From NCBI GenBank assembly GCA_044353325.1, contig JBILCF010000008.1:1-30326 (forward strand): a DNA stretch of 30,326 nucleotides, given 5' to 3'. The position numbers and the translations under genes are program-made. This DNA comes from Chitinophagaceae bacterium (GTDB taxonomy: Bacteria; Bacteroidota; Bacteroidia; Chitinophagales; Chitinophagaceae). Under the pieces are notes generated by a model, which was given only the letters and a program-made list of their open reading frames with translations, did not search any database and was not told the DNA's origin. Shown here piece by piece: positions 6,150-30,326 of this stretch. How positions within the stretch are numbered: the first letter of the stretch is position 1; each line of letters starts with the position of its first letter.

Positions 6150-6590
6150 CTAAAATCTCAGTGTGCGTTTTAGATCGCGTTCAGCATCTTTGGCTTTAAT
6201 GCTATCACGTTTGTCATGCACTTTTTTACCTCTAGCCAAGGCTATTTCTAGTTTGGCATAGCCACTTTCACTTAAAAAAATACGAAGCGGGATAATCGTA
6301 AAACCTTTCTCTTTGGTTTTGGCTTCAAGCTTGCGCAATTCCTTTTTGGTCATCAACAGTTTTCGATCACGGATCGGATTATGATTGTTGGCTGTACCAA
6401 ATGAGTATTCTGCAATATGTAAGCTTTTAATCCACAATTCGCCTTGCTGCAAAAAACAATAACTGTCGTTAAAACTGGTTTTGCCTTGTCGCATCGATTT
6501 GATTTCGGTGCCAAGCAATACCATTCCAGCCGTAAAACGTTGTTCTATGGCATAATGAAAAGTAGCTGATCTGTTTGAAATTTCCTTCAT
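6150..6590 (-). CDS. smpB: SsrA-binding protein SmpB
   Basis: The translation (ATFHYAIEQRFTAGMVLLGTEIKS...WIKSLHIAEY...RDRKLLMTKKEL) is classic SmpB. I chose the ATG at 6590 (MKEISNR) over the track's TTG at 6602, because a TAnnTTTG box overlaps the TTG. Confidence 0.9.
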   Translation of the reverse strand: MKEISNRSATFHYAIEQRFTAGMVLLGTEIKSMRQGKTSFNDSYCFLQQGELWIKSLHIAEYSFGTANNHNPIRDRKLLMTKKELRKLEAKTKEKGFTIIPLRIFLSESGYAKLEIALARGKKVHDKRDSIKAKDAERDLKRTLRF

Positions 6591-6599
6591 GTCGTAGTG

Positions 6600-6607
6600 C
6601 AAATGTA
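6600..6607 (-). promoter_or_regulatory. Candidate -7 promoter box for smpB (TACATTTG on the minus strand)
   Basis: The reverse complement of 6600-6607 is TACATTTG, which matches TAnnTTTG. It lies 9 nt upstream of the ATG at 6590. Confidence 0.3.
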
Positions 6608-6844
6608 CTACCTTTTTGTGAAGCGTTCAATGCAACAAATTCCAATTTAAAAAAGTAGTTTATACCAATGTGAAATGGCTCGCAGACCATTTCTTACAGT
6701 GGTAAATGCCGATACTACATGAATATAGTACAATGAGTCCTAAGACGAAATTGGACTATTTATAAATGTGTAATCGGTATTAGCTTTCTGAATGTGCAAA
6801 ATTCTATTTTTTAAAGTACTTTCATGCCCTGAAAATAATTTTGG

Positions 6845-8338
6845 ATGACAGAAGCACATTTTTTACCGTATCGACAAGCTACTATTGGCCACGACCAAAC
6901 CTTTCCTTCTCCTTTTGGCGAACAAAAAATGATTTATGCCGATTGGATAGCAAGTGGTCGATTATATGCTCCAATAGAAAAAACGCTATTGGAGGATGTA
7001 TTTCCTTTTTGTGGCAATACACATACCGAAACTTCAATTACAGGAACCCTGATGACCAATGCCTACCACGAGGCCAAAGAGTATATCAAAAAACAAGTCA
7101 ATGCGCATACAAGTGATGCTTTGATTTTTTCAGGAACTGGCATGACGGATTCAATCAATAAATTGCAACGGATACTAGGTCTTCGCCTACCCGATACGAG
7201 CCGTCTGTACATACCAGATTTTAAAGCCAAATGCCATATCGAAGAATCTAAACGACCTGTGGTATTTGTGACCCATATGGAACATCATTCCAACCACACT
7301 TCATGGTTAGAAACCATTGCTGATGTCGAAATTATTAATCCCGACGAACATGGTCATGTCGATTTAAACCATTTTGAAACCTTGTTGAAACAATATCAAC
7401 ATAGACCACTCAAAATAGCATCCGTCACAGCAGCATCAAACGTGACAGGCTTGATAACTCCATACTACACCATAGCAGAAATGATTCATCAAATTGGTGG
7501 TTTGTGCTTTGTCGATTTTGCATGTTCAGGTCCGTATGTCGATATAGATATGCATCCTGCTAATGAAGGTAAATGCCTCGATGCCATATTTATTTCGCCT
7601 CACAAATTTTTAGGCGGACCAGCTACGCCTGGTATCATGATACTTAATACTGCTTTGTGTCAAAATACAATTCCAGATCATTCAGGAGGTGGTACAGTGC
7701 GTTTTACTACACCTTGGAAAACACATGAATACTATGCCAATGTAGAAGATCGTGAAGATGGTGGCACGCCTGGTTTTTTGCAAGGCATTAAAGCATCATT
7801 GTGTTTCAAACTGAAAAAAGAAATGGGTGTAGCACAAATACTACATCGCGAAATGCTGATGTTGAAAAAAGTATTTCAACAACTCAAAACGATTCCAAAT
7901 TTACATATTCTTGCTTCAGAAGTAGAACATCGAATTGGTGCAATTTCATTTTATGTTGATGGTTTACATTTCAATTTAGGCGTAAAACTGCTCAACGATT
8001 ATTTTGGCATACAAGTGCGTGGTGGATGCGCTTGCGCTGGTACCTATGGTCACTATCTACTCAATATCAACCGTGAAGAATCTAAGGCTATTTTAGAGCA
8101 AATCAATCAAGGCAATTTGTTTGTTCGTCCGGGTTGGATACGCTTATCTATACATCCAACGATGACCGATTTAGAGTTGGATACGATATTGAATGCTATC
8201 GCATACGTAGCCGAACATTTTGAAGAAATGGGCAAGGATTACACTTATTTACCTAAGAAAAATATTTTTAAACACAATACTTTCGAATCTTCGTTTGAAA
8301 CAAACTTCTTACATAATTTGTACGAAAAACCGTTTTAA
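6845..8338 (+). CDS. Aminotransferase class V-fold PLP-dependent enzyme (cysteine desulfurase / selenocysteine lyase-like)
   Basis: 497 aa with an ATG start. The HMEHHSN and SPHKFLGGP motifs fit the S-x-H-K PLP-lysine motif, and overall it resembles the class V fold. Confidence 0.8.
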   Translation: MTEAHFLPYRQATIGHDQTFPSPFGEQKMIYADWIASGRLYAPIEKTLLEDVFPFCGNTHTETSITGTLMTNAYHEAKEYIKKQVNAHTSDALIFSGTGMTDSINKLQRILGLRLPDTSRLYIPDFKAKCHIEESKRPVVFVTHMEHHSNHTSWLETIADVEIINPDEHGHVDLNHFETLLKQYQHRPLKIASVTAASNVTGLITPYYTIAEMIHQIGGLCFVDFACSGPYVDIDMHPANEGKCLDAIFISPHKFLGGPATPGIMILNTALCQNTIPDHSGGGTVRFTTPWKTHEYYANVEDREDGGTPGFLQGIKASLCFKLKKEMGVAQILHREMLMLKKVFQQLKTIPNLHILASEVEHRIGAISFYVDGLHFNLGVKLLNDYFGIQVRGGCACAGTYGHYLLNINREESKAILEQINQGNLFVRPGWIRLSIHPTMTDLELDTILNAIAYVAEHFEEMGKDYTYLPKKNIFKHNTFESSFETNFLHNLYEKPF

Positions 8339-9477
8339 CTTACACTTTCAATTGCTTGAATATAAATATCATTCAATTGCTTACCTACAGCATCATAACT
8401 GTATAGTTGCGAAGCAGTCTCAGCTATCTGTTTGTTCGAATATCGTGCATAGTTATCTATCATATCCTGCATAGCTTTTGTGAGTAATGCAACATCGTTG
8501 GGAGGAACAAGTATACCATTGGTATCATCAATCAACTCTTTGACACCACCGACTGCCGAAGTGATCACAGGCAAGCCGCAACATAGCCATTCGAGTACTG
8601 CACAGGACTGGGTTTCGTTGAAACTAAACAGAATTCCTGCATGGGCGACTTGCACTTGTTTGGCGACTTCGGCATAGGTCATTTCCGGTAGAAAATGAAC
8701 ACGATTCATTGCCCATTTTTTACCTTCTATGAGTTTGGTATTTTTCTTTGATGTATTGCCTACAATGACAAGCTCCACATGTTGTCGTTCTTTGGCTAGT
8801 TTGGCAAAGGCTTGCAGTATGCCAGGTATATTTTTGATATCATCGCCATTGGAGACATGTATAAATCTAAACCGGTCTTGCGTCTTATTTTCCTTATGAA
8901 AAAACAAGGATGTGTTTACCACATTGGGAACTACCGTAAAAGCTTTTTCGCAAACATGCGTATTCATATCGTTGCCTAAGCTTATACTTACAGGCAGTAG
9001 GTTTAAAGCTTGTTGGAGAATACGCTTCGTGAAAAACTTAAAAAAATAATTGCGCTGACTATAGCGATCCTTGACTTCGTTGTTGTAAATACCATAATGT
9101 TCAGTAACCAAGAAAGGAAGTTTATATATTCGTTTCCATCGAAGTGCAATGAGGCCACTTTTGATAGGTATGTGTACATGAATCAAATCGGGCTTGCCTT
9201 TGCGGCTAAAATAATCATTGATAAAGGATTCATGCAATTGAAAAAAATCCTTCAAACGAATAATTTTATGCACCGCTTTACTGTGATAAATGGTTTCGCA
9301 CAAGTGAGCATTGGGATGCGTAATGACACATTTATCCTCCTGCGCATCTACAATATGCACCACTTCGATATCGGCATACCGCGAAGCTGCAAGCGCCTGA
9401 CGCTGTATAAAATCGCCAGTGAACCGATCGATTTCGTTCGGATACCAACTACACAGCCAAATGATTTTCTTGCGCAT
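8335..9477 (-). CDS. Glycosyltransferase family 4 (GT-B)
   Basis: 380 aa with an ATG start. The C-terminal half carries the GT4/GT1 signature (E-x7-E-like region: NETQSCAVLEWLCCGLPVITSAVGGVKELI). Its stop overlaps the stop of the convergent gene by 2 nt. Confidence 0.8.
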   Translation of the reverse strand: MRKKIIWLCSWYPNEIDRFTGDFIQRQALAASRYADIEVVHIVDAQEDKCVITHPNAHLCETIYHSKAVHKIIRLKDFFQLHESFINDYFSRKGKPDLIHVHIPIKSGLIALRWKRIYKLPFLVTEHYGIYNNEVKDRYSQRNYFFKFFTKRILQQALNLLPVSISLGNDMNTHVCEKAFTVVPNVVNTSLFFHKENKTQDRFRFIHVSNGDDIKNIPGILQAFAKLAKERQHVELVIVGNTSKKNTKLIEGKKWAMNRVHFLPEMTYAEVAKQVQVAHAGILFSFNETQSCAVLEWLCCGLPVITSAVGGVKELIDDTNGILVPPNDVALLTKAMQDMIDNYARYSNKQIAETASQLYSYDAVGKQLNDIYIQAIESVS

Positions 9478-9770: not shown

Positions 9771-9813
9771 ATGTTTGAATCACGGATGATGATGATGACA
9801 CGGATTGCACTGA
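9771..9813. repeat. Inverted repeat arm A-left
   Basis: The reverse complement of ATGTTTGAATCACGGATGATGATGATGACACGGATTGCACTGA matches 10258-10300. Confidence 0.85.
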
Positions 9814-9830
9814 TTTTGATAAATTCATTT

Positions 9831-10205
9831 TCATAATACTAAACGTTTAAATTGTAAACTTTTACTACCAAAGTTAATTAATAATCCAACTTCTATTTTA
9901 TATGCTCGTAAATAATTTAATAGTTGTGCAGTATGCACTTCTTCCATATTTATTATTGCTTTTAATTCAACCAGTACTTTGCCCTCTACCAAAAAATCTG
10001 CTCGACGTGTTCCTATCGGCTCTGTCAGTTCTTTGTAATAAATAGGCTGTTCTATTTCTCTTGAAAATGATAGTCCCTTTTTACTCATTTCGAATGCTAA
10101 GGCTCTTTGATATATAACCTCTTGGAAGCCATTTCCTAAAAAAGAATGGACTTCAAATGATGCACCTATAATCTTTTCTGTAATATCTTTATGTTTTAGT
10201 TCCAT
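9831..10205 (-). CDS. GxxExxY protein (PD-(D/E)XK nuclease fold, PDDEXK_3 / TIGR04256-like)
   Basis: 124 aa with an ATG start. It has the GFQEVIY motif (GxxExxY), D...ELK nuclease-type residues (RRADFLV...VELK) and the family-typical C-terminus GLLINFG...FKRLVL. Confidence 0.85.
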   Translation of the reverse strand: MELKHKDITEKIIGASFEVHSFLGNGFQEVIYQRALAFEMSKKGLSFSREIEQPIYYKELTEPIGTRRADFLVEGKVLVELKAIINMEEVHTAQLLNYLRAYKIEVGLLINFGSKSLQFKRLVL

Positions 10206-10257
10206 TAGCTCAAAATGTATTCTTTATAATCTTAGCATTCATATAAATCCGTGTAAC

Positions 10258-10300
10258 TCAGTGCAATCCGTGTCATCTTCAAAATCTGTGATTCAGACAT
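10258..10300. repeat. Inverted repeat arm A-right
   Basis: TCAGTGCAATCCGTGTCATCTTCAAAATCTGTGATTCAGACAT. An extra AATCCGTGT word sits just inside, at 10247-10255. Confidence 0.85.
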
Positions 10301-10494: not shown

Positions 10495-10527
10495 AAAAAA
10501 AGGAGACTCTCTAGAATCTCCTTTTTA
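10495..10527 (-). terminator. Rho-independent terminator downstream of dnaA
   Basis: Stem AGGAGA (10501-10506) pairs with TCTCCT (10517-10522). An A-run lies upstream on the plus strand, which gives a U-run after the stem on the minus-strand RNA. The structure is ~20 nt past the dnaA stop. Confidence 0.65.
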
Positions 10528-10544: not shown

Positions 10545-11981
10545 TTAAATCGCCGCCAATTGTACTTTTTGTTGCAATTCTTTGACTTGCTCGCGTATCA
10601 TCACATCGGTATCCATCAGGTCCTTCACCGTTTGACAGCTATGTATTACCGTAGTATGATCTCGTCCGCCAAAGTGGTCGCCAATGTTTTTCAAGGAGTT
10701 TTTGGTAAATTGTTTAGCCAAAAACATTGAAATTTGACGTGCTTGAACTATTTCGCGTTTACGTGTTTTCGCTTGTAATTTATCGTATGGTATTTCATAA
10801 AAATCACAAACCATTTTTTGTATCGTATCGATTGTAATTTCTTTAGACGATGTTTTAACAATGTTTCGCAATACCTTTTTGGCTAAATCTAAATCGATTT
10901 CTTTTTTGACCAAAGATGAATGTGCCAACAATGAAATCAAGGCACCTTCCATTTCGCGGATATTGTTTTGCACGTTGTAAGCCAAATACTTCACCACTTC
11001 TGCCGGAAGATCTAAACCATCGTTGCGCATTTTGTGATCGAGGATAGCCATACGTGTTTCAAAATCGGGTGCTTGCAAATCGGCACTCAATCCCCATCTG
11101 AAACGCGATAGTAAACGCTCTTGCATACCATCCAAGTCTTTAGGTGGCTTATCGCTAGTAAGTATCAATTGTTTGCCATTTTGGTGCAAATGATTGAAGA
11201 TAGAGAAAAATGCATCCTGCGATTTGATTGCTGGCGCAAAATAATGGATATCGTCAATGATCAACACATCAATCAATTGGTAGAAATTGATAAAATCATT
11301 GATCTCATGATTTTTTGAATGTTCTATAAACTGATGTATAAATTTCTCAGCACTAACGTACAATACAGTTTTGTTGGGATGCAAACGCTTGGTTTCATTG
11401 CCTATGGCATGTATCAAGTGGGTTTTGCCTAGTCCTGACGAACTGTATACCACCAATGGATTAAACGATGTACCACCGGGTTTTTGTGCCACGGCCATAC
11501 CTGCACTTCGCGCTAATCGGTTGCATTCGCCTTCTACAAATGAATCGAAAGTATAATTAGGATTTAATTGCGGATCTATTTGCGAGCGTTTGAGGCCTGG
11601 TATTACAAATGGATTTTTGATACCGCTATCGTTGCCTACATGTACATCGACATAGTTGTTGCTCAATTGTGCTTGCGAGTGGCTACTTGCAGGCATACGA
11701 ATCGATGCTGGATTTTTCTTATTTTGGTTTTCCATCAAAATGCGGTACTCCAATTGTGCATCTTTGCCCAATTCGCGTTTGATAGTTTTTGCAATCAATT
11801 CGACATAATGTTCTTCAAGCCATTCATAAAAAAATTGACTTGGTACTTCGATCACCAATACATTGTTTTCTAACGAGACTGGTTTGATTGGTTCAAACCA
11901 TGTTTTGTATGATTGCCAGCTAATGTTATCTTTAATTACCTTTAAACAATTCTCCCATATTTTATCTAAGGTTTTTGTCAT
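10545..11981 (-). CDS. dnaA: Chromosomal replication initiator protein DnaA
   Basis: 478 aa. It has Walker A (SSGLGKTHL), AAA+ motifs (LIIDDIH) and the domain IV DNA-binding signature (GGRDHTTVIHSCQTV). Confidence 0.95.
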   Translation of the reverse strand: MTKTLDKIWENCLKVIKDNISWQSYKTWFEPIKPVSLENNVLVIEVPSQFFYEWLEEHYVELIAKTIKRELGKDAQLEYRILMENQNKKNPASIRMPASSHSQAQLSNNYVDVHVGNDSGIKNPFVIPGLKRSQIDPQLNPNYTFDSFVEGECNRLARSAGMAVAQKPGGTSFNPLVVYSSSGLGKTHLIHAIGNETKRLHPNKTVLYVSAEKFIHQFIEHSKNHEINDFINFYQLIDVLIIDDIHYFAPAIKSQDAFFSIFNHLHQNGKQLILTSDKPPKDLDGMQERLLSRFRWGLSADLQAPDFETRMAILDHKMRNDGLDLPAEVVKYLAYNVQNNIREMEGALISLLAHSSLVKKEIDLDLAKKVLRNIVKTSSKEITIDTIQKMVCDFYEIPYDKLQAKTRKREIVQARQISMFLAKQFTKNSLKNIGDHFGGRDHTTVIHSCQTVKDLMDTDVMIREQVKELQQKVQLAAI

Positions 11982-24800: not shown

Positions 24801-25679
24801 TTAATATTTCGCTCCACTTACACCAATATTTTCTATTGGGTGCCAAGTCGTTTTAATTTCTTGCAAATCCATAATCAAGTATGGATTTTCATTTTCAGCT
24901 TTTGTCCAGTCTTTTTGCCACATAAAACTACGCTTTACATTTAAAGATGAAAGCTCAGCAATTGTCTTTGCTTCTTCCATATTTTCTCTGCAATAAACTA
25001 TAGCATTTACATCCATGTGCGATGCAAAATGTGTATGCAATTCTTTACTTTTTCCTGTTAAAATATTGACAACACCGCCCGGCAAATCAGATGTAGCTAA
25101 TACCTCTGCAAAGGTTATACTACACAATGGTTTTGTTTCTGATGCTAAAACCACACATGTATTACCACCTGCAATGACAGGCATGATAACAGAAACCAAT
25201 CCTAACAATGAAGAATGTTCATCTGCTATTACACTGACAACGCCAGTTGGTTCGGGTACAGAAAAATTGAAATGAGATGTAGCCACTGGGTTTACAGTTC
25301 CAAACAATTGCTGATACTTGTCACACCAACCACTGTAATAAACGCATCTATCAATAGCTAATCGAACTTCTTTTTCAGCACTTGCTTTCGTTGAACCTTG
25401 TATCATTAATTCTTCTATAAATTGCGCTTTTCTTCCTTCAAGCATTTCTGCTATTCTGTAAAGGATTTGTCCGCGATTAAATGCCGCACGCCCGCTCCAA
25501 CCTTCAAATGCTTTTCGTGCAGCAACTACAGCGTTGCGAAAATCTTTTCGAGAGGAAAGGCACATGTTTGCAATAACCTCTTTCTTATTATTTTCCAATT
25601 TATAAAATCGACCACTTTCAGTTCGAGGGAAAGCTCCACCGATGTATAGTTTGTATGTTTTTAAAATTTCTAATTGCAT
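24801..25679 (-). CDS. Truncated aldehyde dehydrogenase family paralog (NAD-binding portion only; no catalytic Cys/Glu motifs seen)
   Basis: 292 aa. The N-terminus is ALDH-like (YKLYIGG..., W....A..R..IL.R.AE) and a GGVVNILTG segment is present, but there is no ELGGK or GQxC motif. It ends 3 nt from the parC stop. Confidence 0.7.
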   Translation of the reverse strand: MQLEILKTYKLYIGGAFPRTESGRFYKLENNKKEVIANMCLSSRKDFRNAVVAARKAFEGWSGRAAFNRGQILYRIAEMLEGRKAQFIEELMIQGSTKASAEKEVRLAIDRCVYYSGWCDKYQQLFGTVNPVATSHFNFSVPEPTGVVSVIADEHSSLLGLVSVIMPVIAGGNTCVVLASETKPLCSITFAEVLATSDLPGGVVNILTGKSKELHTHFASHMDVNAIVYCRENMEEAKTIAELSSLNVKRSFMWQKDWTKAENENPYLIMDLQEIKTTWHPIENIGVSGAKY

Positions 25680-25690
25680 AGTTTTTATTT

Positions 25691-25778
25691 TTTACCACAG
25701 AGATACCAGAGTTAATATACAGAGTTATCTGAGGATTTATTTTTTATTTAAAGAGGTTTTTGAGAGTTAATTGAGACA
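25691..25778. repeat. Inverted repeat arm B-left (overlaps the 3' end of the GxxExxY ORF)
   Basis: TTTACCACAGAGATACCAGAGTTAATATACAGAG...TTTTTGAGAGTTAATTGAGACA aligns with the reverse complement of the tandem unit (TTAACCACAGAGAAAGCAGAGGCTAATCACAGAG...TTTTTCAGAGTTAAATGAGAGA). That is about 24/34 and 19/22 matches in the two segments I aligned by hand. Confidence 0.7.
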
Positions 25779-26170
25779 TAGTTTAAATCTTTATAAAATT
25801 TATTAATTAATCTTTTAATTCCATTTTTCAAGAGTGGAACATTAAAATTAATTAATAGTCCAATTTTATTATTATTTAATTTTAAATAAGTTAATAATTG
25901 AGCAATATGAACATCATTAAATTCTTCTATAGTTTTTAATTCTACAATTATTTTATCTTCAACTAATAAATCAATTTTATGACCTACATCTAACTTTATT
26001 TCTTCATAGATTAACGGTAATGATTTTTGTCTTTCTACTTTTAATCCTAGTTTATTTAATTCATAAAATAAACAAGCTTCATAACTTGATTCTAATAAAC
26101 CTGGACCAAGTGCAGAATGGACTTTTATAGCACATCCAATTATTAATTCTGTCAGTTCATTTTCTTGCAT
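25748..26170 (-). CDS. GxxExxY protein (PD-(D/E)XK fold)
   Basis: 140 aa with an ATG start. It has GLLESSY (GxxExxY), IDLLV...VELK and GLLINF...GIKRLIN. The last ~17 aa (KFYKDLNYVSINSQKPL) are read from the flanking repeat arm. Confidence 0.85.
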   Translation of the reverse strand: MQENELTELIIGCAIKVHSALGPGLLESSYEACLFYELNKLGLKVERQKSLPLIYEEIKLDVGHKIDLLVEDKIIVELKTIEEFNDVHIAQLLTYLKLNNNKIGLLINFNVPLLKNGIKRLINKFYKDLNYVSINSQKPL

Positions 26171-26267
26171 TTCGTTTGTTATTTTTTACATCAAACTTAA
26201 CCTCTATTTTCTCTAATTTCTCTCAATATTTCAATACGTTTCCTATGTGTCAGAACTCCGTTCTCTT

Positions 26268-26520
26268 TGTGGTTAATAAATCTTTGATTTTTCTCATTTA
26301 ACTCTGAAATATTTTTTGTTTTCTCTGTAATTAGCTTCTGCTTTCTCTGTGGTTAACAAATCTTTGATTTCTCTCATTTAACTCTGAAAAATTTAACTTT
26401 GTTTTCTCTGTGATTAACCTCTGCTTTCTTTGTGGTTAACAAATCTTTGATTTCTCTCATTTAACTCTGAAAAATTTAACTTTGTTCTCTCTGTGATTAG
26501 CCTCTGCTTTCTCTGTGGTC
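26268..26520. repeat. Tandem repeat, about 3.1 copies of an 80-83 bp unit
   Basis: Copies start at 26268, 26348, 26431 and 26514 (the last is partial). Copies 2 and 3 are identical at 80/83 positions. The unit contains sub-words TCTCTGTGGTTAA, TCTCTGTGATTA and TCATTTAACTCTGAAA. More degenerate material lies at about 26200-26267. Confidence 0.9.
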
Positions 26521-26527
26521 AATCAAA

Positions 26528-27946
26528 CTAGAATTTCACATATGGCAATAACCCATGTACACCTCCTTCTCTTCCAAATCCACTTTCTTTGTAACCACCA
26601 AATGGAGAAGTTGGATCAAATTTATTGTAGGTATTTGCCCAAATTACACCTGCTCTCAATTTAGTCGTTAAGTTGAAAATTTTACTGCCTTTATCCGTCC
26701 ACACACCAGCACTTAAACCATATGGAATATTATTTGCTTTTTCTATGACTTCTTCTATAGTTCTAAAAGTTTGAATCGTTAAAACAGGACCGAAAATTTC
26801 TTCTTTCACAATTCGATGGCTTTGTGAAGTCCCTATAAATAACGTTGGTTTGCAGAAAAATCCATTCAATGGAATTGCACATTCCGGTTGAAATATTTCA
26901 GCGCCTTCTTTTTGTCCAAGTTTGATGTAATGGTTTATTTTATCTAATTGTTCTTTACTATTGATAGCACCTATGTCTGTATTTTTATCCATAGGATCGC
27001 CCACTATCAAAGTCTTCATTCTATCTTTCAATTTCTTGATGACTTTTTCAGCTACATTTTCTTGAATAAATAATCTTGAACCTGCACAACATACATGACC
27101 TTGATTAAAGAAAATGCCATTTACAATTCCTTCTATAGCTTGATCAATTGGCGCATCATCAAAAATAATATTGGCCGCTTTTCCTCCTAATTCTAAAGTT
27201 ACTTTTTTAGTGGTTCCTGCAACTGCCTTTTGAATATATTTTCCAACAGGCGTACTTCCTGTAAAGGCAATTTTATTGACTTGTGGATGATTTACCAAAG
27301 CAGCACCACAATCTCCAAATCCTGTTACTATATTTACAACACCATCAGGCAAACCACTTTCTTGAATAATTTCTGCTAATTTCAAAGCTGTTAATGGTGT
27401 GCTTTCAGCAGGTTTTAAAACAACAGTGTTTCCTGTTGCCAATGCTGGTGCTAATTTCCAAGCAGCCATCAACAAGGGGAAATTCCAAGGAATAATTTGA
27501 CCCGCTACACCAATTGGTTTTGGATTTCTATTTGGAAAAGCATATTCTAATTTATCAGCCCAACCTGCATAATAGAAAAAATGATTAGCAGCTAAAGGCA
27601 CATCAATATCTCTACTTTCACGAATCGATTTTCCACCATTCATAGTTTCAATGACAGCAAATTCTCTTGCTCGTTCTTGAATCATTCGTGCAATTCTATA
27701 AATATATTTTGCTCGTTCTTTTGGATCTGTTTTGCTCCATGATTCAAATGCTTTATTGGCTGCTTTTACTGCTACATCAATATCTTTTTCATTTCCTTTT
27801 GCAACCGTTGCAATTTTTTTTCCTGTGGCAGGATTAATGGTATCGTAGTATTCCTTGCTTAATGGCTTTACAAATTTTCCATTAATGAATAAATCATATT
27901 TCGATTTTAATTGAATATGATCTGATGATTCTGGAGCTGGAGCCAT
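26528..27946 (-). CDS. NAD(P)-dependent aldehyde dehydrogenase
   Basis: Catalytic motifs LELGGKA and FFNQGHVCCAGSRL, plus the NAD-binding segment GSTPVGK. I chose the start at the ATG at 27946 (MAPAPESS..., 472 aa). The track ORF extends to 28132, but only through the 39-bp tandem repeats. Confidence 0.88.
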   Translation of the reverse strand: MAPAPESSDHIQLKSKYDLFINGKFVKPLSKEYYDTINPATGKKIATVAKGNEKDIDVAVKAANKAFESWSKTDPKERAKYIYRIARMIQERAREFAVIETMNGGKSIRESRDIDVPLAANHFFYYAGWADKLEYAFPNRNPKPIGVAGQIIPWNFPLLMAAWKLAPALATGNTVVLKPAESTPLTALKLAEIIQESGLPDGVVNIVTGFGDCGAALVNHPQVNKIAFTGSTPVGKYIQKAVAGTTKKVTLELGGKAANIIFDDAPIDQAIEGIVNGIFFNQGHVCCAGSRLFIQENVAEKVIKKLKDRMKTLIVGDPMDKNTDIGAINSKEQLDKINHYIKLGQKEGAEIFQPECAIPLNGFFCKPTLFIGTSQSHRIVKEEIFGPVLTIQTFRTIEEVIEKANNIPYGLSAGVWTDKGSKIFNLTTKLRAGVIWANTYNKFDPTSPFGGYKESGFGREGGVHGLLPYVKF

Positions 27947-27971
27947 TGATGAAAATATCCCCACAGTTTTT

Positions 27972-28088
27972 TTAGCCACTGATGACTCAGATGACACAGA
28001 TGCGATACGTTTAGCCACTGATGACTTAGATGGCACAGATGCTATACGTTTAGCCACAGATGGTGGAGATTTCACAGATGTTTGACGC
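27972..28088. repeat. Tandem repeat, 3 x 39 bp
   Basis: Units at 27972-28010, 28011-28049 (36/39 identical to unit 1) and 28050-28088 (degenerate). The unit is TTAGCCACTGATGACTCAGATGACACAGATGCGATACGT. Confidence 0.9.
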
Positions 28089-28140
28089 TTTTCTTTAGTT
28101 ACTTGTTTTATTTTTGAAATTGATTTACTCATAAATATTT

Positions 28141-28569
28141 TTATAAAATGACTCTTTTAAATGTTAATTTATCTTCTCCAAAGTTGATGATTAAACCAAT
28201 AGGATTTTTTGATGCTGCTAAATAATTTATTGTTTGTTTAAAATGACTATCTATTACATCTTTTGTTGCTTTAATTTCTAAAATTATTTTATCAAAAACT
28301 ACAAAGTCTGCTCTATAACTATGTTGTAATACAATATCTTTATAATTAATTTGATAGCATTGTTCTCTGCTAAATGTAATGTTTTGTAATTGAAATTCGT
28401 GTTCTAATGCATCTTTATATACCACTTCTGCAAAGCCTCTGCCCAACTGATTATGTACCTCCATACAAGCACCAATAATTTTAAAAGTTTCTTGTTGCAA
28501 AGGAAATTTGATAGTAGAATATCCTACATATGATTCTTCAACAACATTCATATTTTCAAAACTATTCAT
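28141..28569 (-). CDS. GxxExxY protein (PD-(D/E)XK fold)
   Basis: It has GFAEVVY (GxxExxY), RADFVV...LEIK and GLIINFG...FKRVIL. I chose the ATG at 28569; the track start at 28572 is a TTG. An internal Met (MNVVEE) could also be the start. Confidence 0.85.
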   Translation of the reverse strand: MNSFENMNVVEESYVGYSTIKFPLQQETFKIIGACMEVHNQLGRGFAEVVYKDALEHEFQLQNITFSREQCYQINYKDIVLQHSYRADFVVFDKIILEIKATKDVIDSHFKQTINYLAASKNPIGLIINFGEDKLTFKRVIL

Positions 28570-28605
28570 CAATTTCTTTTTACTAAATTAAATTAATCGG
28601 CTGTT

Positions 28606-28636
28606 CATCTGTGCTATCTGAGTCATCTTTGGCTAG
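28606..28636. repeat. Inverted repeat arm C-right (overlaps the deoC stop codon)
   Basis: The reverse complement of CATCTGTGCTATCTGAGTCATCTTTGGCTAG is CTAGCCAAAGATGACTCAGATAGCACAGATG. This compares with TTAGCCACTGATGACTCAGATGACACAGATG in the 39-bp unit. Confidence 0.8.
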
Positions 28637-29520
28637 TCTTTACTTATATAATCTCCACTATAATAAACCCCCATTTTCTCTTTCCCCAATTGCAACAAAA
28701 TATCATTGGCTAGGCTACTAGCTCCAAATCGAAACCACTCATTCGTCATCCATTTTTCACCTAAAGTTTCATATAGCATGACTAAATATTGTAATGCTGA
28801 TTTTGATGTCGAAATTCCCCCAGCTGGTTTCATGCCTATCATGATACCAGTTTCATCATAATAATCTTTAATGGCTTGCAACATTACTAATGTCACTGGC
28901 ATAGTCGCAGCTGGTTGTATTTTACCTGTAGATGTTTTAATGAAATCAGCACCAGCAAAAATAGCAATATCACTTGCTTTTCGCACATTATCTAATGTCG
29001 ACAATTCGCCAGTTTCTAAAATGACTTTTAATCGAGCTACACCACATGCTTCTTTAATAGCAGCGATTTCATCATACACAAAATTATAATTTCCTGATAA
29101 AAATTCTCCCCTACTGATAACCATGTCAACTTCATCTGCACCACTATTGACTGCAATTTTTACATCTTCTAATTTTATTTTTCTCGATGAATTTCCACTA
29201 GGAAAAGCTGTGGCAACTGATGCTACTTTTACGTTTGAATTTTCTAAAGCTTTTTTGGCTGTTTTCACATGATTAGGATATACGCATACTGCCGCTACCG
29301 TTGGCAAGCCTTCAATATCGTCTGCTAAGTGCATCGCTTTGTAGCACATTTGTTTGACTTTTCCTGCGGTGTCTTTTCCTTCTAATGTAGTTAAATCAAT
29401 CATGTTTAAGGCTAATAACATGCCTTGAATTTTACTTTCTTTTTTAATACTTCGGGTATTGAACCTTGCCACTCGTTCTTCTACACCTACTTGATCTATA
29501 GTCACGTTTGAAAACTTCAT
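28633..29520 (-). CDS. deoC: Deoxyribose-phosphate aldolase (long DeoC type)
   Basis: 295 aa. It has a class I aldolase TIM barrel with the Schiff-base lysine context GADFIKTSTGK, plus VCVYP and EVDMVI segments. Confidence 0.85.
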   Translation of the reverse strand: MKFSNVTIDQVGVEERVARFNTRSIKKESKIQGMLLALNMIDLTTLEGKDTAGKVKQMCYKAMHLADDIEGLPTVAAVCVYPNHVKTAKKALENSNVKVASVATAFPSGNSSRKIKLEDVKIAVNSGADEVDMVISRGEFLSGNYNFVYDEIAAIKEACGVARLKVILETGELSTLDNVRKASDIAIFAGADFIKTSTGKIQPAATMPVTLVMLQAIKDYYDETGIMIGMKPAGGISTSKSALQYLVMLYETLGEKWMTNEWFRFGASSLANDILLQLGKEKMGVYYSGDYISKD

Positions 29521-29576: not shown

Positions 29577-30326
29577 TTATTTTAATATATCCAAAATTTG
29601 AAACATACTAAGTTTTACTTCTTTGGGTTTGCATGTATAATCATTGATGATAAATGCAAAACATGCTTCAGTACTATCTTTCATTTTTATATACCCAGCA
29701 TAAGAACGTGTTCCGCCAATATAGCCACTCTTCATTCTCAATCCATTGATGGAGGGTAGACTTTCAAAAAAGGTAGGATAATAGGATTCTTTACTGTAAT
29801 GGTGTAAAAGCTGGGCCATAATACTGGTCGTAATTCTATTTTCTGGGGCTAGACCGCTTGCATCCAATAACTTAACGCTATTCATATTGATGTTTAGCGA
29901 TTTAGCATATGAAATCATAGCGTTAAGACCTGCTAACCAATTCCCTTTCACAAGCGTGCGTGGAAATAAATAAGGCGTATCTTGTTTACTTTTCAATGAC
30001 ATTGTTTTACAAAATGCTTCTGCATAGAGATTTAAACTTTTTTGGTTGCACCAATAAACAAGTTGTTTTAAAGTTGGCGAAAAATGGCTCACAACAGATA
30101 TTTGTTTAGCTTCAATTTGTTTTGACGAAGGCTCTAATTTGAATTCTTTTTGAAGGTATTCAGTCAATTCTTTTTGAAAATCTTGATCAGGATATAGTCT
30201 TGCTAATTGCATGTTGTTTACTTTTTCAGTATTTGACAATACACCCCTAATTACATATTTACAAGTTTTATCTTTTTCAACGAATGCATACGCTTCTTCT
30301 GTTGTAGCACCCTCTTTGTGTTTCAA
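29577..30326 (-). CDS. dacB: D-alanyl-D-alanine carboxypeptidase/endopeptidase (PBP4, peptidase S13); N-terminus lies outside the window
   Basis: 249 aa C-terminal fragment. It has a K(S/T)G-type motif (MKSGYIGGTRSYAGY) and an LDASGL segment typical of PBP4. The ORF is open to the window edge. Confidence 0.7.
   Translation of the reverse strand: MKHKEGATTEEAYAFVEKDKTCKYVIRGVLSNTEKVNNMQLARLYPDQDFQKELTEYLQKEFKLEPSSKQIEAKQISVVSHFSPTLKQLVYWCNQKSLNLYAEAFCKTMSLKSKQDTPYLFPRTLVKGNWLAGLNAMISYAKSLNINMNSVKLLDASGLAPENRITTSIMAQLLHHYSKESYYPTFFESLPSINGLRMKSGYIGGTRSYAGYIKMKDSTEACFAFIINDYTCKPKEVKLSMFQILDILK

Follow-up and report, generated by a model that had tools for sequence, protein, structure and literature searches.

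Inverted-repeat-bounded GxxExxY nuclease genes in the spacers of a deoC–aldehyde dehydrogenase operon: candidate selfish cassettes resembling 23S rRNA intervening sequences

In a 30,326-nt stretch of DNA from a Chitinophagaceae bacterium (GenBank assembly GCA_044353325.1, contig JBILCF010000008.1; referred to as the window, with all coordinates given as window positions 1–30,326), both junctions of a gene string consisting of deoC, an aldehyde dehydrogenase (ALDH) gene and a short ALDH-like gene are filled by small open reading frames (ORFs) of the GxxExxY family, each of them lying between inverted repeats. This arrangement raises the question of what genes of a family for which our literature search found no described function are doing in the spacers of such an operon. 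The comparisons reported here indicate that the two genes, together with a third one elsewhere in the window, very probably belong to a family of insertion cassettes that are bounded by inverted repeats (hereafter called arms), and that this family is common to GxxExxY genes and to genes of the PF05635 family. For the phenomenon as a whole we lean, with slightly better than even confidence, toward selfish cassettes with hairpin-forming arms, which resemble the intervening sequences (IVSs) of 23S rRNA and are read through together with the host operon.

On the minus strand, the genes follow each other in the order S13 peptidase fragment, deoC, 143-aa ORF, ALDH, 140-aa ORF, and 292-aa ALDH-like gene. 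An earlier note on this DNA, made from the sequence alone, had proposed that GxxExxY cassettes bracketed by inverted repeats occupy both operon junctions. Profile matches and a window-wide scan for inverted repeats (partners ≤900 nt apart) confirmed this, with the cassette arms ranking 1–5 among 76 pairs. In total, the window contains three GxxExxY genes between such arms; the genes are referred to as GxxExxY-A, -B, and -C, and their cassettes as A, B, and C. The 5′ arm of cassette B at the deoC–ALDH junction (28606–28635, minus strand; sense sequence TAGCCAAAGATGACTCAGATAGCACAGATG; inverted repeats I2/I3, 30 nt, 87% complementary) does overlap the deoC stop codon, as had been noted: the TAG (28633–28635) forms the first three bases of the arm. 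Downstream lies the GxxExxY-B gene (28141–28572, minus strand; 143 aa as listed; PF13366, E = 8.5e-36; TIGR04256, E = 1.4e-40), whose true start may be an internal ATG because the domain begins at residue 27. The 3′ side carries the predicted array of three tandem 39-bp arm copies (27971–28087, minus strand, with copies at 27971–28009, 28010–28048, and 28049–28087; direct-repeat family D2, 72–100% identity; inverted repeats I3, I4, and I7). The 5′ arm pairs with 27973–28002 and 28012–28041 (30 nt, 87%) as well as with 28051–28080 (77%), and the termini of the cassette read TAGCCAMWGATG...CATCAGTGGCTA.

At the ALDH–short-ALDH junction, the array is formed by the 5′ arm of cassette A (26235–26522, minus strand), with the core TTRACCACAGAGAAAGCAGAGGYTAATCACAGAG and the inner sub-arm TTTTTCAGAGTTAAATGAGA (direct-repeat family D1; inverted repeats I2, I5, I11, I17, and I18). 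The earlier note had counted three copies of ~82 bp ending 7 nt from the ALDH stop codon. A tandem arm array is indeed present, but it comprises ~4 copies of an 80–83-nt bipartite arm, and the outermost arm reaches 26522, which leaves 5 nt to the stop codon (26528–26530). The tandem unit as such spans 26235–26563 in about 4 copies, the outer one being only partly arm-like. The GxxExxY-A gene (25748–26170, minus strand; 140 aa; PF13366, E = 2.3e-41; TIGR04256, E = 6.8e-44) is ~15 residues longer than typical members of the family (~125 aa), because its frame continues into the inner portion of the 3′ arm of the cassette (25748–25790). This arm (25688–25776, minus strand) is composed of a core (25688–25724) and an inner sub-arm (25757–25776), with 8 nt between it and the ATG of the short ALDH gene. 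While the core pairs with 26323–26359 and 26489–26522 (34–37 nt, 73–74%), the sub-arm pairs with 26372–26391 and 26455–26474 (20 nt, 90%); because of this second paired sub-arm, the whole ~83-nt unit can be regarded as one bipartite arm of ~85 nt.

Cassette C (9771–10300) was absent from the earlier note, as were the ORF-less hairpins, the composition of the arms from short words, and the polymorphism in arm copy number described below. It is located between dnaA (10545–11981) and a GT4 glycosyltransferase gene (8335–9477), with an unassigned spacer of about 240–290 nt on either side. Its GxxExxY-C gene (9831–10205, minus strand; 124 aa; PF13366, E = 1e-36) is enclosed by a 5′ arm (10255–10300, minus strand; sense sequence ATGTCTGAATCACAGATTTTGAAGATGACACGGATTGCACTGAGTT) and a 3′ arm (9771–9816, minus strand), which pair with each other over 46 nt (87%) as the longest inverted repeat in the window (I1), with the termini TCTGAATCACGGAT...ATCYGTGATTCAGA. 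Short words recur within the arms. The words CACAGAGA and CACAGATG occurred 5 and 6 times in the window compared with 0.65 and 0.71 expected occurrences (7–8-fold over-representation), and all 5 copies of the former and 5/6 of the latter lie within cassettes. The three GxxExxY proteins in these 30 kb of genome are 34–42% identical, and each is accompanied by different arms.

The ALDH protein was scanned against one genome per species, which yielded 80 orthologous loci with 67–89% identity from Bacteroidota, Ignavibacteria, Balneolaceae, Planctomycetota, Verrucomicrobiota, and others (loci compared with the window are labeled L followed by a number). The order deoC, ALDH, short ALDH was kept in nearly all of these loci, and the junctions were mostly short. 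The deoC–ALDH gap (n = 65) had a median length of 90 nt and measured ≤200 nt in 53 and >420 nt in 8 cases, compared with 500–686 nt in the window; the ALDH–short-ALDH gap (n = 71) had a median of 56 nt, with 58 cases ≤200 nt and 11 cases >420 nt, compared with 848 nt in the window. In the closest relative (L001, 89% ALDH identity), the two gaps were 121 and 56 nt long and contained no ORF. Empty sites, the presence of which had been proposed as a check, are the rule and not the exception in these operons. Since this holds for most orthologous loci including the closest relative, the reading as ancient synteny was not upheld.

Some of the longer gaps contained inserts of the kind seen in the window. 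Locus L003 possesses a 491-nt cassette in the ALDH–short-ALDH gap, with a GxxExxY gene 63–68% identical to GxxExxY-A, whereas its close relative L004 has a 12-nt spacer there. In ten gaps of nine loci (both gaps of L010, and one each of L012, L014, L015, L024, L028, L031, L034, and L040), we found genes of the PF05635/TIGR02436 family instead. This is the family of the four-helix-bundle proteins encoded in 23S rRNA IVSs, and the arms around these genes are laid out as in the GxxExxY cassettes. Other contents were a two-ORF insert in a gap of L017, which had no family match and resembled a RelE-type toxin–antitoxin pair by eye only, and a GNAT gene in a gap of L039. Tandem units of the CTCATTAACTCATTT type, with neither an ORF nor a partner arm, were observed in the ALDH–short-ALDH gap of L018 (5820–5910).

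The association of both gene families with inverted repeats was quantified by a score for the best ungapped repeat between the 200-nt flanks of a gene (+1 per match, −2 per mismatch). The 166 control small ORFs from the same loci had a mean score of 8.2 and a maximum of 13, compared with scores of 18, 11, 28, 21, 11, and 11 for six GxxExxY genes and of 25, 23, 19, 12, 19, 17, 9, 46, 13, and 10 for the ten PF05635 genes. In a metagenome scan of 80 loci, 27 of the 63 usable GxxExxY genes scored ≥14. With 250-nt flanks and a penalty of −1.5 per mismatch, 47 of all 92 cassettes reached this value, and with 300-nt flanks and the same penalty, 5 of 9 copies on viral contigs had arms of 41–66 nt. A cross-locus control (mean 8.5, 99th percentile 16) was inflated by words common to the loci. 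Hence, inverted repeats around GxxExxY genes exceed the background of small genes, and this excess together with the empty sites bears out the view of the earlier note that the proteins and repeats form coupled modules.

In the survey of about 110 GxxExxY loci, an arm proved to be an array of 3–4 short words with a start-to-start spacing that peaked at 9–10 nt. The cassette-A-like subfamily uses the word CRCNRAG (CACAGAG, CGCAAAG, CGCAGAG, and similar). In the 150-nt flanks, CRCNRAK words outnumbered their reverse complements upstream (224 vs. 58) and were outnumbered by them downstream (51 vs. 193). A reading of this purine-rich polarity as a signal of ORF orientation was discarded, because the polarity is inherent to an inverted repeat, both strands of which read word...reverse complement. 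The outer termini are conserved within each protein subfamily (TTTAACCRCAGAG...CTCTGYGGTTAAA in cassette-A-like copies, and the termini given above for cassette C in cassette-C-like copies), and the words themselves differ completely between lineages. The PF05635 cassettes contain other words (GGTTCAAAAG, AGTTTGGAG, GTGTTCAGT) in a similarly periodic inverted layout. Most of the surveyed cassettes have a single arm per side, and arrays occur on either side of the gene (upstream in A, downstream in B). The elements, with a median length of 530 nt, are tightly fitted between their neighbors: a median of 9 nt separates the 5′ arm from the preceding stop codon, and a median of 13 nt lies between the 3′ arm and the ATG that follows. 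Co-orientation with the passenger gene was strong, as it was found for 69 of 79 upstream ORFs, 67 of 76 downstream ORFs, and both neighbors in 55 of 68 cases.

The cassettes also differ between closely related strains. Ten loci with near-identical flanks (L161–L170) displayed three states of a PF05635 cassette, which was located in the cyclase–yjbR gap (L161, L162, L165, L168, L169, and L170), in the ruvC–hemN gap (L163 and L164), or in neither gap (L166 and L167). Between L170 (filled) and L166 (empty), flanking polymorphisms common to both extend right up to the insert, and 23 nt of host sequence are replaced by ~500 nt. Through this replacement, the cyclase gene loses its stop codon together with the four codons preceding it; its end changes from ...YKIEK to ...YSLE before the stop, with the new end supplied by the 5′ arm. 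Similarly, the stop codon of the upstream gene in L161 lies 9–11 nt inside the 5′ arm. No target-site duplication or flanking direct repeats were detected in the comparison of L170 with L166 or in that of L003 with L004, where a 12-nt spacer is replaced. One GxxExxY protein (P0091), which was present in 257 blocks of the assembly collection, was located between HemN and the cyclase gene in 10 of 10 places examined, which belong to these same strains.

Derivatives without an ORF were found as well. The “empty” ruvC–hemN gap harbors a 62-nt hairpin of two word arms (L161, 1214–1275; also in L166 and L167; −19.9 kcal/mol). At this very site, L163 and L164 contain a full PF05635 cassette with different arm words, which suggests an exchange of cassettes and not a simple deletion. 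Within the ALDH operon gaps, ORF-less hairpins with GxxExxY-type termini occur in L048 (TTAACCGCAGAG...CTCGGCGGTAAAA; z = −6.9), L004, and L003, and such hairpins with PF05635-type words in L028 and L014; altogether, 12 of 51 mid-sized gaps fold at z < −3.

Termini travel with the gene. Cassette-C-like proteins (83–100% identical) were found in three unrelated contexts, namely between dnaA and the glycosyltransferase gene in the window, between a cytidylyltransferase gene and secA, and at a site where both neighbors are on the opposite strand, and the arm termini were the same each time; the proteins of the two contexts outside the window are 83–88% identical to GxxExxY-C. Tandem amplification has produced arm arrays with as many as about ten arm copies, and the length of an array differs from strain to strain. 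In L185–L189 (about 1490–2000), the upstream spacer next to cassette-C-like genes measures 154–510 nt, and L190 and L191 (2375–3200) differ by one 252-nt arm unit. The 3 × 39 and ~4 × 83 arrays in the window are instances of this amplification. A separate 21-nt tandem array (CTGTGCAAGAAGTAAAATAGG, 7 copies) was observed in L189.

The assignment of the window proteins to the GxxExxY family is robust, with PF13366 scores of 123–141 bits (cut-off 22) for A, B, and C and TIGR04256 scores of 138–149 bits (cut-off 35) for A and B. In alignments of 6, 44, and 47 sequences including the three window proteins, the residues G24, E27, and Y30 of the GxxExxY motif and D67, E77, and K79 of the catalytic D...ExK triad were invariant; further invariant columns of the family alignment were G22, E37, Y55, and Q91. 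The GxxExxY proteins of the window can be classed as minimal PD-(D/E)XK nucleases, their D...ExK site being intact. An AlphaFold2 model of GxxExxY-A (mean pLDDT 89) has helices and strands that match the α/β core of the PD-(D/E)XK type. A search of the PDB retrieved no sequence relative, and the best structural matches, which were lambda exonuclease, alkaline exonucleases, and Cas4 SSO0001, were weak (TM about 0.45). Matches to the generic fold at this level do not distinguish a DNA nuclease from an RNA nuclease. The defense (PADLOC) and phage libraries likewise yielded just a weak similarity to a Cas4-like core. When protein clusters at 50% identity were searched with a profile made from the 44-sequence alignment, 35,867 cluster representatives matched at E ≤ 1e-3, and 15,135 did so at the stricter limit of E ≤ 1e-10. 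The protein matches also point to a culturable carrier, Flavobacterium azooxidireducens (P0055). Some proteins (P0121–P0135; 250–295 aa) contain two tandem GxxExxY domains, which are either true fusions or adjacent cassettes merged by gene calling. The PF05635 passengers also match PF22296 (bAvd) and the PHROG “Avd protein of DGR”.

The host genes around cassettes A and B comprise deoC, which encodes deoxyribose-phosphate aldolase and is the upstream host gene (28633–29520, minus strand; TIGR00126, E = 1.4e-53), the full-length ALDH gene (26528–28132, minus strand, as the longest ORF of 534 aa; PF00171, E = 3.7e-165), and the downstream short ALDH-like gene (24801–25679, minus strand; 292 aa; PF00171, E = 1.1e-36). 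The S13 peptidase gene fragment lies at 29577–30326 (minus strand), and a plus-strand gene for topoisomerase IV subunit A converges on the deoC–ALDH string. The short ALDH matches just positions 7–211 of the 461 positions of the PF00171 profile, that is its N-terminal half; it lacks the other half, in which full-length ALDHs have their catalytic residues. As judged from the tblastn layout, the short gene is kept directly after the full-length ALDH gene in most of the 80 orthologous loci and in several phyla, and it looks like a stable truncated paralogue. Apparent 2.1-kb ALDH matches at some loci had led us to suspect an insertion inside ALDH, but turned out to be cross-hits of the query on this adjacent paralogue.

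The start of ALDH bears on the 3′ arms of cassette B. The conserved core of the protein begins at ATG 27946, whereas the long ORF, which is also the version called in public assemblies, starts at 28132, 9 nt after the GxxExxY-B stop codon. Every ALDH orthologue possesses a Lys-rich N-terminal tail of 13–25 aa ahead of a conserved APAPE segment, and a comparable tail (MSKSISKIKQ...) results for the window ALDH only from initiation at 28132. Therefore, we favor the upstream start. The three 39-nt arm copies are in frame within this ORF, where they would encode 3 × 13 aa (SVAKRIASVxSxS), so that the array is probably translated as part of ALDH. The period of the in-frame B array (39) is a multiple of three, and the period of the A array, which is non-coding, is 83.

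Several sequence signals close to the cassettes were inspected as well. DnaA boxes near cassette C were present at chance level. The outer arm termini TTAACCACA and TTAGCCACA, which differ from the DnaA-box consensus TTATCCACA by one mismatch and lie at 26268–26276, 26348–26356, 26431–26439, and 28050–28058, were considered as DnaA boxes, but this is probably a coincidence (11 near-matches in the whole window vs. 10.8 expected). For the Bacteroidetes −7 motif TAnnTTTG, 59 copies were counted in the window and 48.5 expected, which does not amount to an enrichment; one −7-type motif (TAAGTTTG) is located at 26192–26199 on the minus strand, 21 nt upstream of the GxxExxY-A ATG. Rfam had no hit in the window, rRNA included, and none of its families fitted the arms or cassettes there (gathering threshold or E ≤ 5); the cassettes of 40 related loci gave the same result. 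In L081 (4019–4216), three CRISPR repeats (Rfam CRISPR-DR49) were observed ~640 nt downstream of a GxxExxY gene. Strong matches to the Rfam family 5_ureB_sRNA (108–118 bits), with no large-subunit rRNA, adjoin a cassette in L115 (2482–2767) and L119 (2483–2770). They are unrelated to the cassettes, as they lie on the upstream ORF on the opposite strand, which we take to be ureB because 5_ureB_sRNA is antisense to the 5′ end of that gene.

We propose the following explanation for the cassettes. The three genes in the window would be copies of a very large class of selfish insertion cassettes of about 0.45–0.85 kb with one ORF each, the passenger being either a PD-(D/E)XK nuclease, as in the window, or a four-helix-bundle protein like those of 23S rRNA IVSs and Avd, as in the sister cassettes. 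The arms of 30–90 nt are the ends of the inserted DNA, which fills the gap from one stop codon to the next start codon. Such a cassette would have no dedicated transcription unit, and expression of its passenger would depend on transcription running through from the host operon. Pairing of the arms in the resulting RNA would create a long stem, by which the passenger ORF is looped out and the usual distance between the flanking cistrons is restored, and this stem would be a likely substrate of RNase III, as documented for the IVSs of 23S rRNA. The nuclease would serve the spread or retention of the cassette and not deoxyribose or aldehyde metabolism.

The individual parts of this explanation differ in strength. 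Co-transcription of the cassettes with the host operon is probable: a search of the minus strand between 24700 and 29700 found no terminator-like site, in agreement with the earlier note, which had reported no hairpin followed by a U-run between the operon genes. The long arm–arm stem that the note had envisaged in the transcript was also recovered by RNA folding, in which the predicted minimum-energy structures close on the arms (z = −5.25 for C, −3.5 for B, and −4.8 for A). In the predicted fold of B, the 5′ arm pairs with the outermost 3′ copy, and in that of A, the 3′ arm pairs with the third 5′ copy.

A number of observations weigh against read-through and RNA processing as general properties of the cassettes. 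A terminator-like hairpin followed by a T-run (AAAAAGGAGATTCTAGAGAGTCTCCTTTTTTT, minus strand) is located at 10497–10526, 19 nt past the dnaA stop codon, so that cassette C may not be read through from dnaA. Since some related cassettes are, in addition, not co-oriented with their neighbors, read-through is not universal. A stem maintained by RNA pairing alone should favor G:U over A:C mismatches, but among the transition mismatches on the sense strand of 47 arm pairs, the numbers were similar (49 G:U vs. 42 A:C; p = 0.53), and those in cassettes B and C were exclusively A:C. No compensatory changes were detected between the orthologous ORF-less hairpins of L003 and L004, and the GxxExxY cassette arms in L161–L170 are nearly invariant and hence uninformative in this respect. 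Words are as similar to the other words of their arm as to their pairing partners: variable word positions agreed to 84% within cassettes compared with 62 ± 3% between cassettes. Protein-binding sites or concerted evolution would account for this likeness no less well than pairing does. Finally, cleavage of the stem would sever the ALDH message where the 3′ arms of cassette B probably belong to the coding region, and mid-stem cleavage would damage the message of the gene that has its stop codon inside the 5′ arm in L161. Because of the mismatch pattern, the lack of compensation, the homogenization of words, and the position of arms in ALDH coding sequence, we entertain cleavage of the sense-strand stem by RNase III only as a tentative element of the explanation, with somewhat less than even confidence.

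The main rival is a transposon acting at the DNA level, in which the arms would be terminal repeats with multiple binding sites, GxxExxY the transposase or excisase, and the ORF-less hairpins elements similar to miniature inverted-repeat transposable elements (MITEs) that are moved in trans. Much of the arm structure would fit this scenario. The outer termini are conserved within subfamilies across unrelated contexts, the 3–4 words per arm recur roughly once per helical turn, which is also seen in transposon ends with multiple sites, each cassette has its specific word dialect, arm mismatches show no G:U bias, copies without an ORF exist, and the catalytic D–ExK residues are invariant. Nevertheless, we consider such a transposon fairly unlikely. 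The near-isogenic alleles show no target-site duplication and a host spacer of 12–23 nt that is replaced instead of split, and the PF05635 passenger lacks a catalytic fold, yet has the same layout and is polymorphic between strains. Moreover, the window contains no near-identical multi-copy arms, its proteins being as divergent as stated above, and the word sequences are wholly different between lineages.

As a second rival, the nuclease could act in the manner of a homing endonuclease, cutting the empty junction, after which repair from a cassette-bearing copy would convert the site plus a few flanking nucleotides. PD-(D/E)XK homing endonucleases such as I-Ssp6803I exist, and homing would account for the existence of filled and empty alleles at fixed positions flanked by conserved genes and for the replacement of the spacer and of the upstream gene’s last four codons without any duplication. 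Furthermore, a 1.4-kb insert in the ALDH–short-ALDH gap of L063 contains an HNH_3+NUMOD4 gene (6565–7134) of the free-standing homing endonuclease type, albeit without a flanking inverted repeat. On the other hand, homing neither needs nor explains inverted arms, ORF-less hairpins, and arm amplification, the PF05635 passengers are not nucleases, and the occurrence of one protein subfamily at unrelated sites would require a relaxed or fast-changing target specificity. Homing is thus an unlikely explanation, and like the transposon it leaves unexplained why a non-catalytic helical-bundle protein shares the layout.

A module that is beneficial or addictive for the host, either as a pair similar to type III toxin–antitoxin systems, with RNAs processed from the tandem repeats controlling the nuclease, or as a domesticated RNA-processing site through which the stoichiometry of the operon products would be adjusted, appears still more improbable. 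The tandem repeats (3 × 39 and ~4 × 83 nt) adjoin the nuclease gene in both operon cassettes, the arm arrays are amplified and strain-variable, and purifying selection is evident from the invariant catalytic residues across the large number of clusters matched at E ≤ 1e-10. However, most cassettes possess a single arm per side and the arrays occur on either side, no defense or toxin–antitoxin model was matched beyond the weak Cas4-like core, and most orthologous operons work without an insert. That nothing is mobile, and that old operon residents are accompanied by chance or low-complexity repeats, has almost no probability, as the recurrence of the layout on at least six other contigs, which encode a GxxExxY-A protein with 99% identity, is set against empty sites in most operons including the closest relative, and against arms that are the top-ranked inverted repeats in the window where control ORFs never exceeded a score of 13.

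With the selfish, IVS-like cassette as the preferred explanation, the elements described here are IVS-type hairpin cassettes in operon spacers with a PD-(D/E)XK passenger, and this class is apparently undescribed: a literature search that included the arm sequences retrieved no earlier description, with most subscription journals lying outside its coverage. The GxxExxY family, very large as it is, thereby obtains a concrete and testable setting, and it becomes linked to the unexplained origin of the 23S rRNA IVSs, the ORF of which has been an orphan for about 30 years. Both families use the same type of hairpin-armed cassette and are rivals for the same spacers in operons; their cassettes are gained and lost from strain to strain and give rise to hairpins without an ORF, so that two dead ends of annotation turn into one testable system. 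It is conceivable, but in our view rather doubtful, that GxxExxY cassettes, PF05635 cassettes, and ORF-less hairpins constitute one unnamed class of mobile elements, in which the encoded protein, a minimal PD-(D/E)XK nuclease or an Avd-like multimer, recognizes the word-array arms, the spread replaces short intergenic spacers without duplicating a target, and 23S rRNA IVSs have their source. For genome annotation, it is of consequence that gene calls can take in arms as coding parts of host genes, for which the 534-aa ALDH and a TTG-extended cyclase are examples, and that arm arrays vary in copy number between strains.

Compared with known systems, the cassettes share individual traits with several types of elements. 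The PF05635 passengers match Avd families and in this respect resemble the Avd proteins of diversity-generating retroelements, but neither a reverse transcriptase nor a template or variable repeat was found near any cassette examined. A type III toxin–antitoxin system (ToxIN-like) was rejected because it requires a constant upstream repeat array, whereas the arrays are upstream in A, downstream in B, and mostly absent elsewhere. Terminal inverted repeats are present as in cut-and-paste insertion sequences and MITEs, but the target-site duplication is absent, and a piggyBac-like TTAA target was not consistently present. Free-standing homing endonuclease genes of the phage seg/mob type are small nuclease genes inserted among conserved ones, they are polymorphic for presence and absence, and a short piece of host sequence is replaced where they occur; the cassettes resemble them in these three traits; however, we know of no inverted arms around seg/mob-type or PD-(D/E)XK homing endonuclease genes.

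The Correia/NEMIS and ERIC elements are short inverted-repeat elements inside operons that are co-transcribed and form hairpins, which in the case of NEMIS serve as substrates of RNase III. The ORF-less word hairpins (L048, L004, L028, and L161) are similar to them in setting and shape. To our knowledge, these elements have no ORF-bearing parent and form near-identical high-copy families with, in the case of Correia, a TA duplication. In contrast, the cassette arms are lineage-specific word arrays, no duplication was seen, and many copies carry a gene. A further resemblance suggested by the earlier note, to “REPtrons” composed of repetitive extragenic palindromes (REPs) and a REP-associated tyrosine transposase (RAYT), is limited to a small gene between inverted repetitive sequences in intergenic DNA. 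Real REP/RAYT units occupy the deoC–ALDH gap in L002 (5075–5926) and L069 (5007–5928) and differ in design: their REPs of 34–38 nt, each a self-complementary hairpin (95–100% complementary; e.g., CCTCCGAATTCGG...CCGAATTTGGAGG), surround a 225-aa RAYT-like gene, which in L002 has a partial match to NF047646. A solo REP of the L069 type was also observed in the ALDH–short-ALDH gap of L002. The REPtron reading was rejected, because the window genes encode a PD-(D/E)XK protein and not a Y1 (IS200/IS605-like) tyrosine transposase, and the arms are direct arrays of words without self-complementarity.

The closest likeness is to the IVSs of 23S rRNA, known from Leptospira and Coxiella burnetii. The Coxiella IVS is 428–444 nt long, carries an S23p ORF in the loop of a 28-bp terminal stem, and is cleaved mid-stem by RNase III (PMC4990558); IVS sizes in the literature range from 428 to 760 nt, and the 2016 study still called IVS function and origin unclear (PMC4990558). 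IVSs and the cassettes agree in size and in the small ORF in the loop, and the terminal inverted repeats of about 28–50 nt that form the enclosing stem of an IVS compare with window arms of 30–46 nt at 87% and of ~85 nt at 73–90%. They also agree in their sporadic distribution, signs of horizontal spread, and short versions without an ORF. The two differ in location, as IVSs sit in helix 25 or 45 of 23S rRNA and the cassettes in mRNA spacers between protein genes, with no rRNA in the window or beside the cassettes in 40 related loci. They differ also in the encoded protein, which is a four-helix bundle (S23p/PF05635) in IVSs and a PF13366 protein of the PD-(D/E)XK type in the window. The IVS-like geometry recognized in the earlier note thus holds in that the arms enclose the ORF, and PF05635 genes, the ORF family of the IVSs themselves, are found at the same two deoC–ALDH–short-ALDH junctions in relatives. 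As these genes have the same arm design and sit in the same operon gaps, the likeness of the cassettes to 23S rRNA IVSs is more than an analogy.

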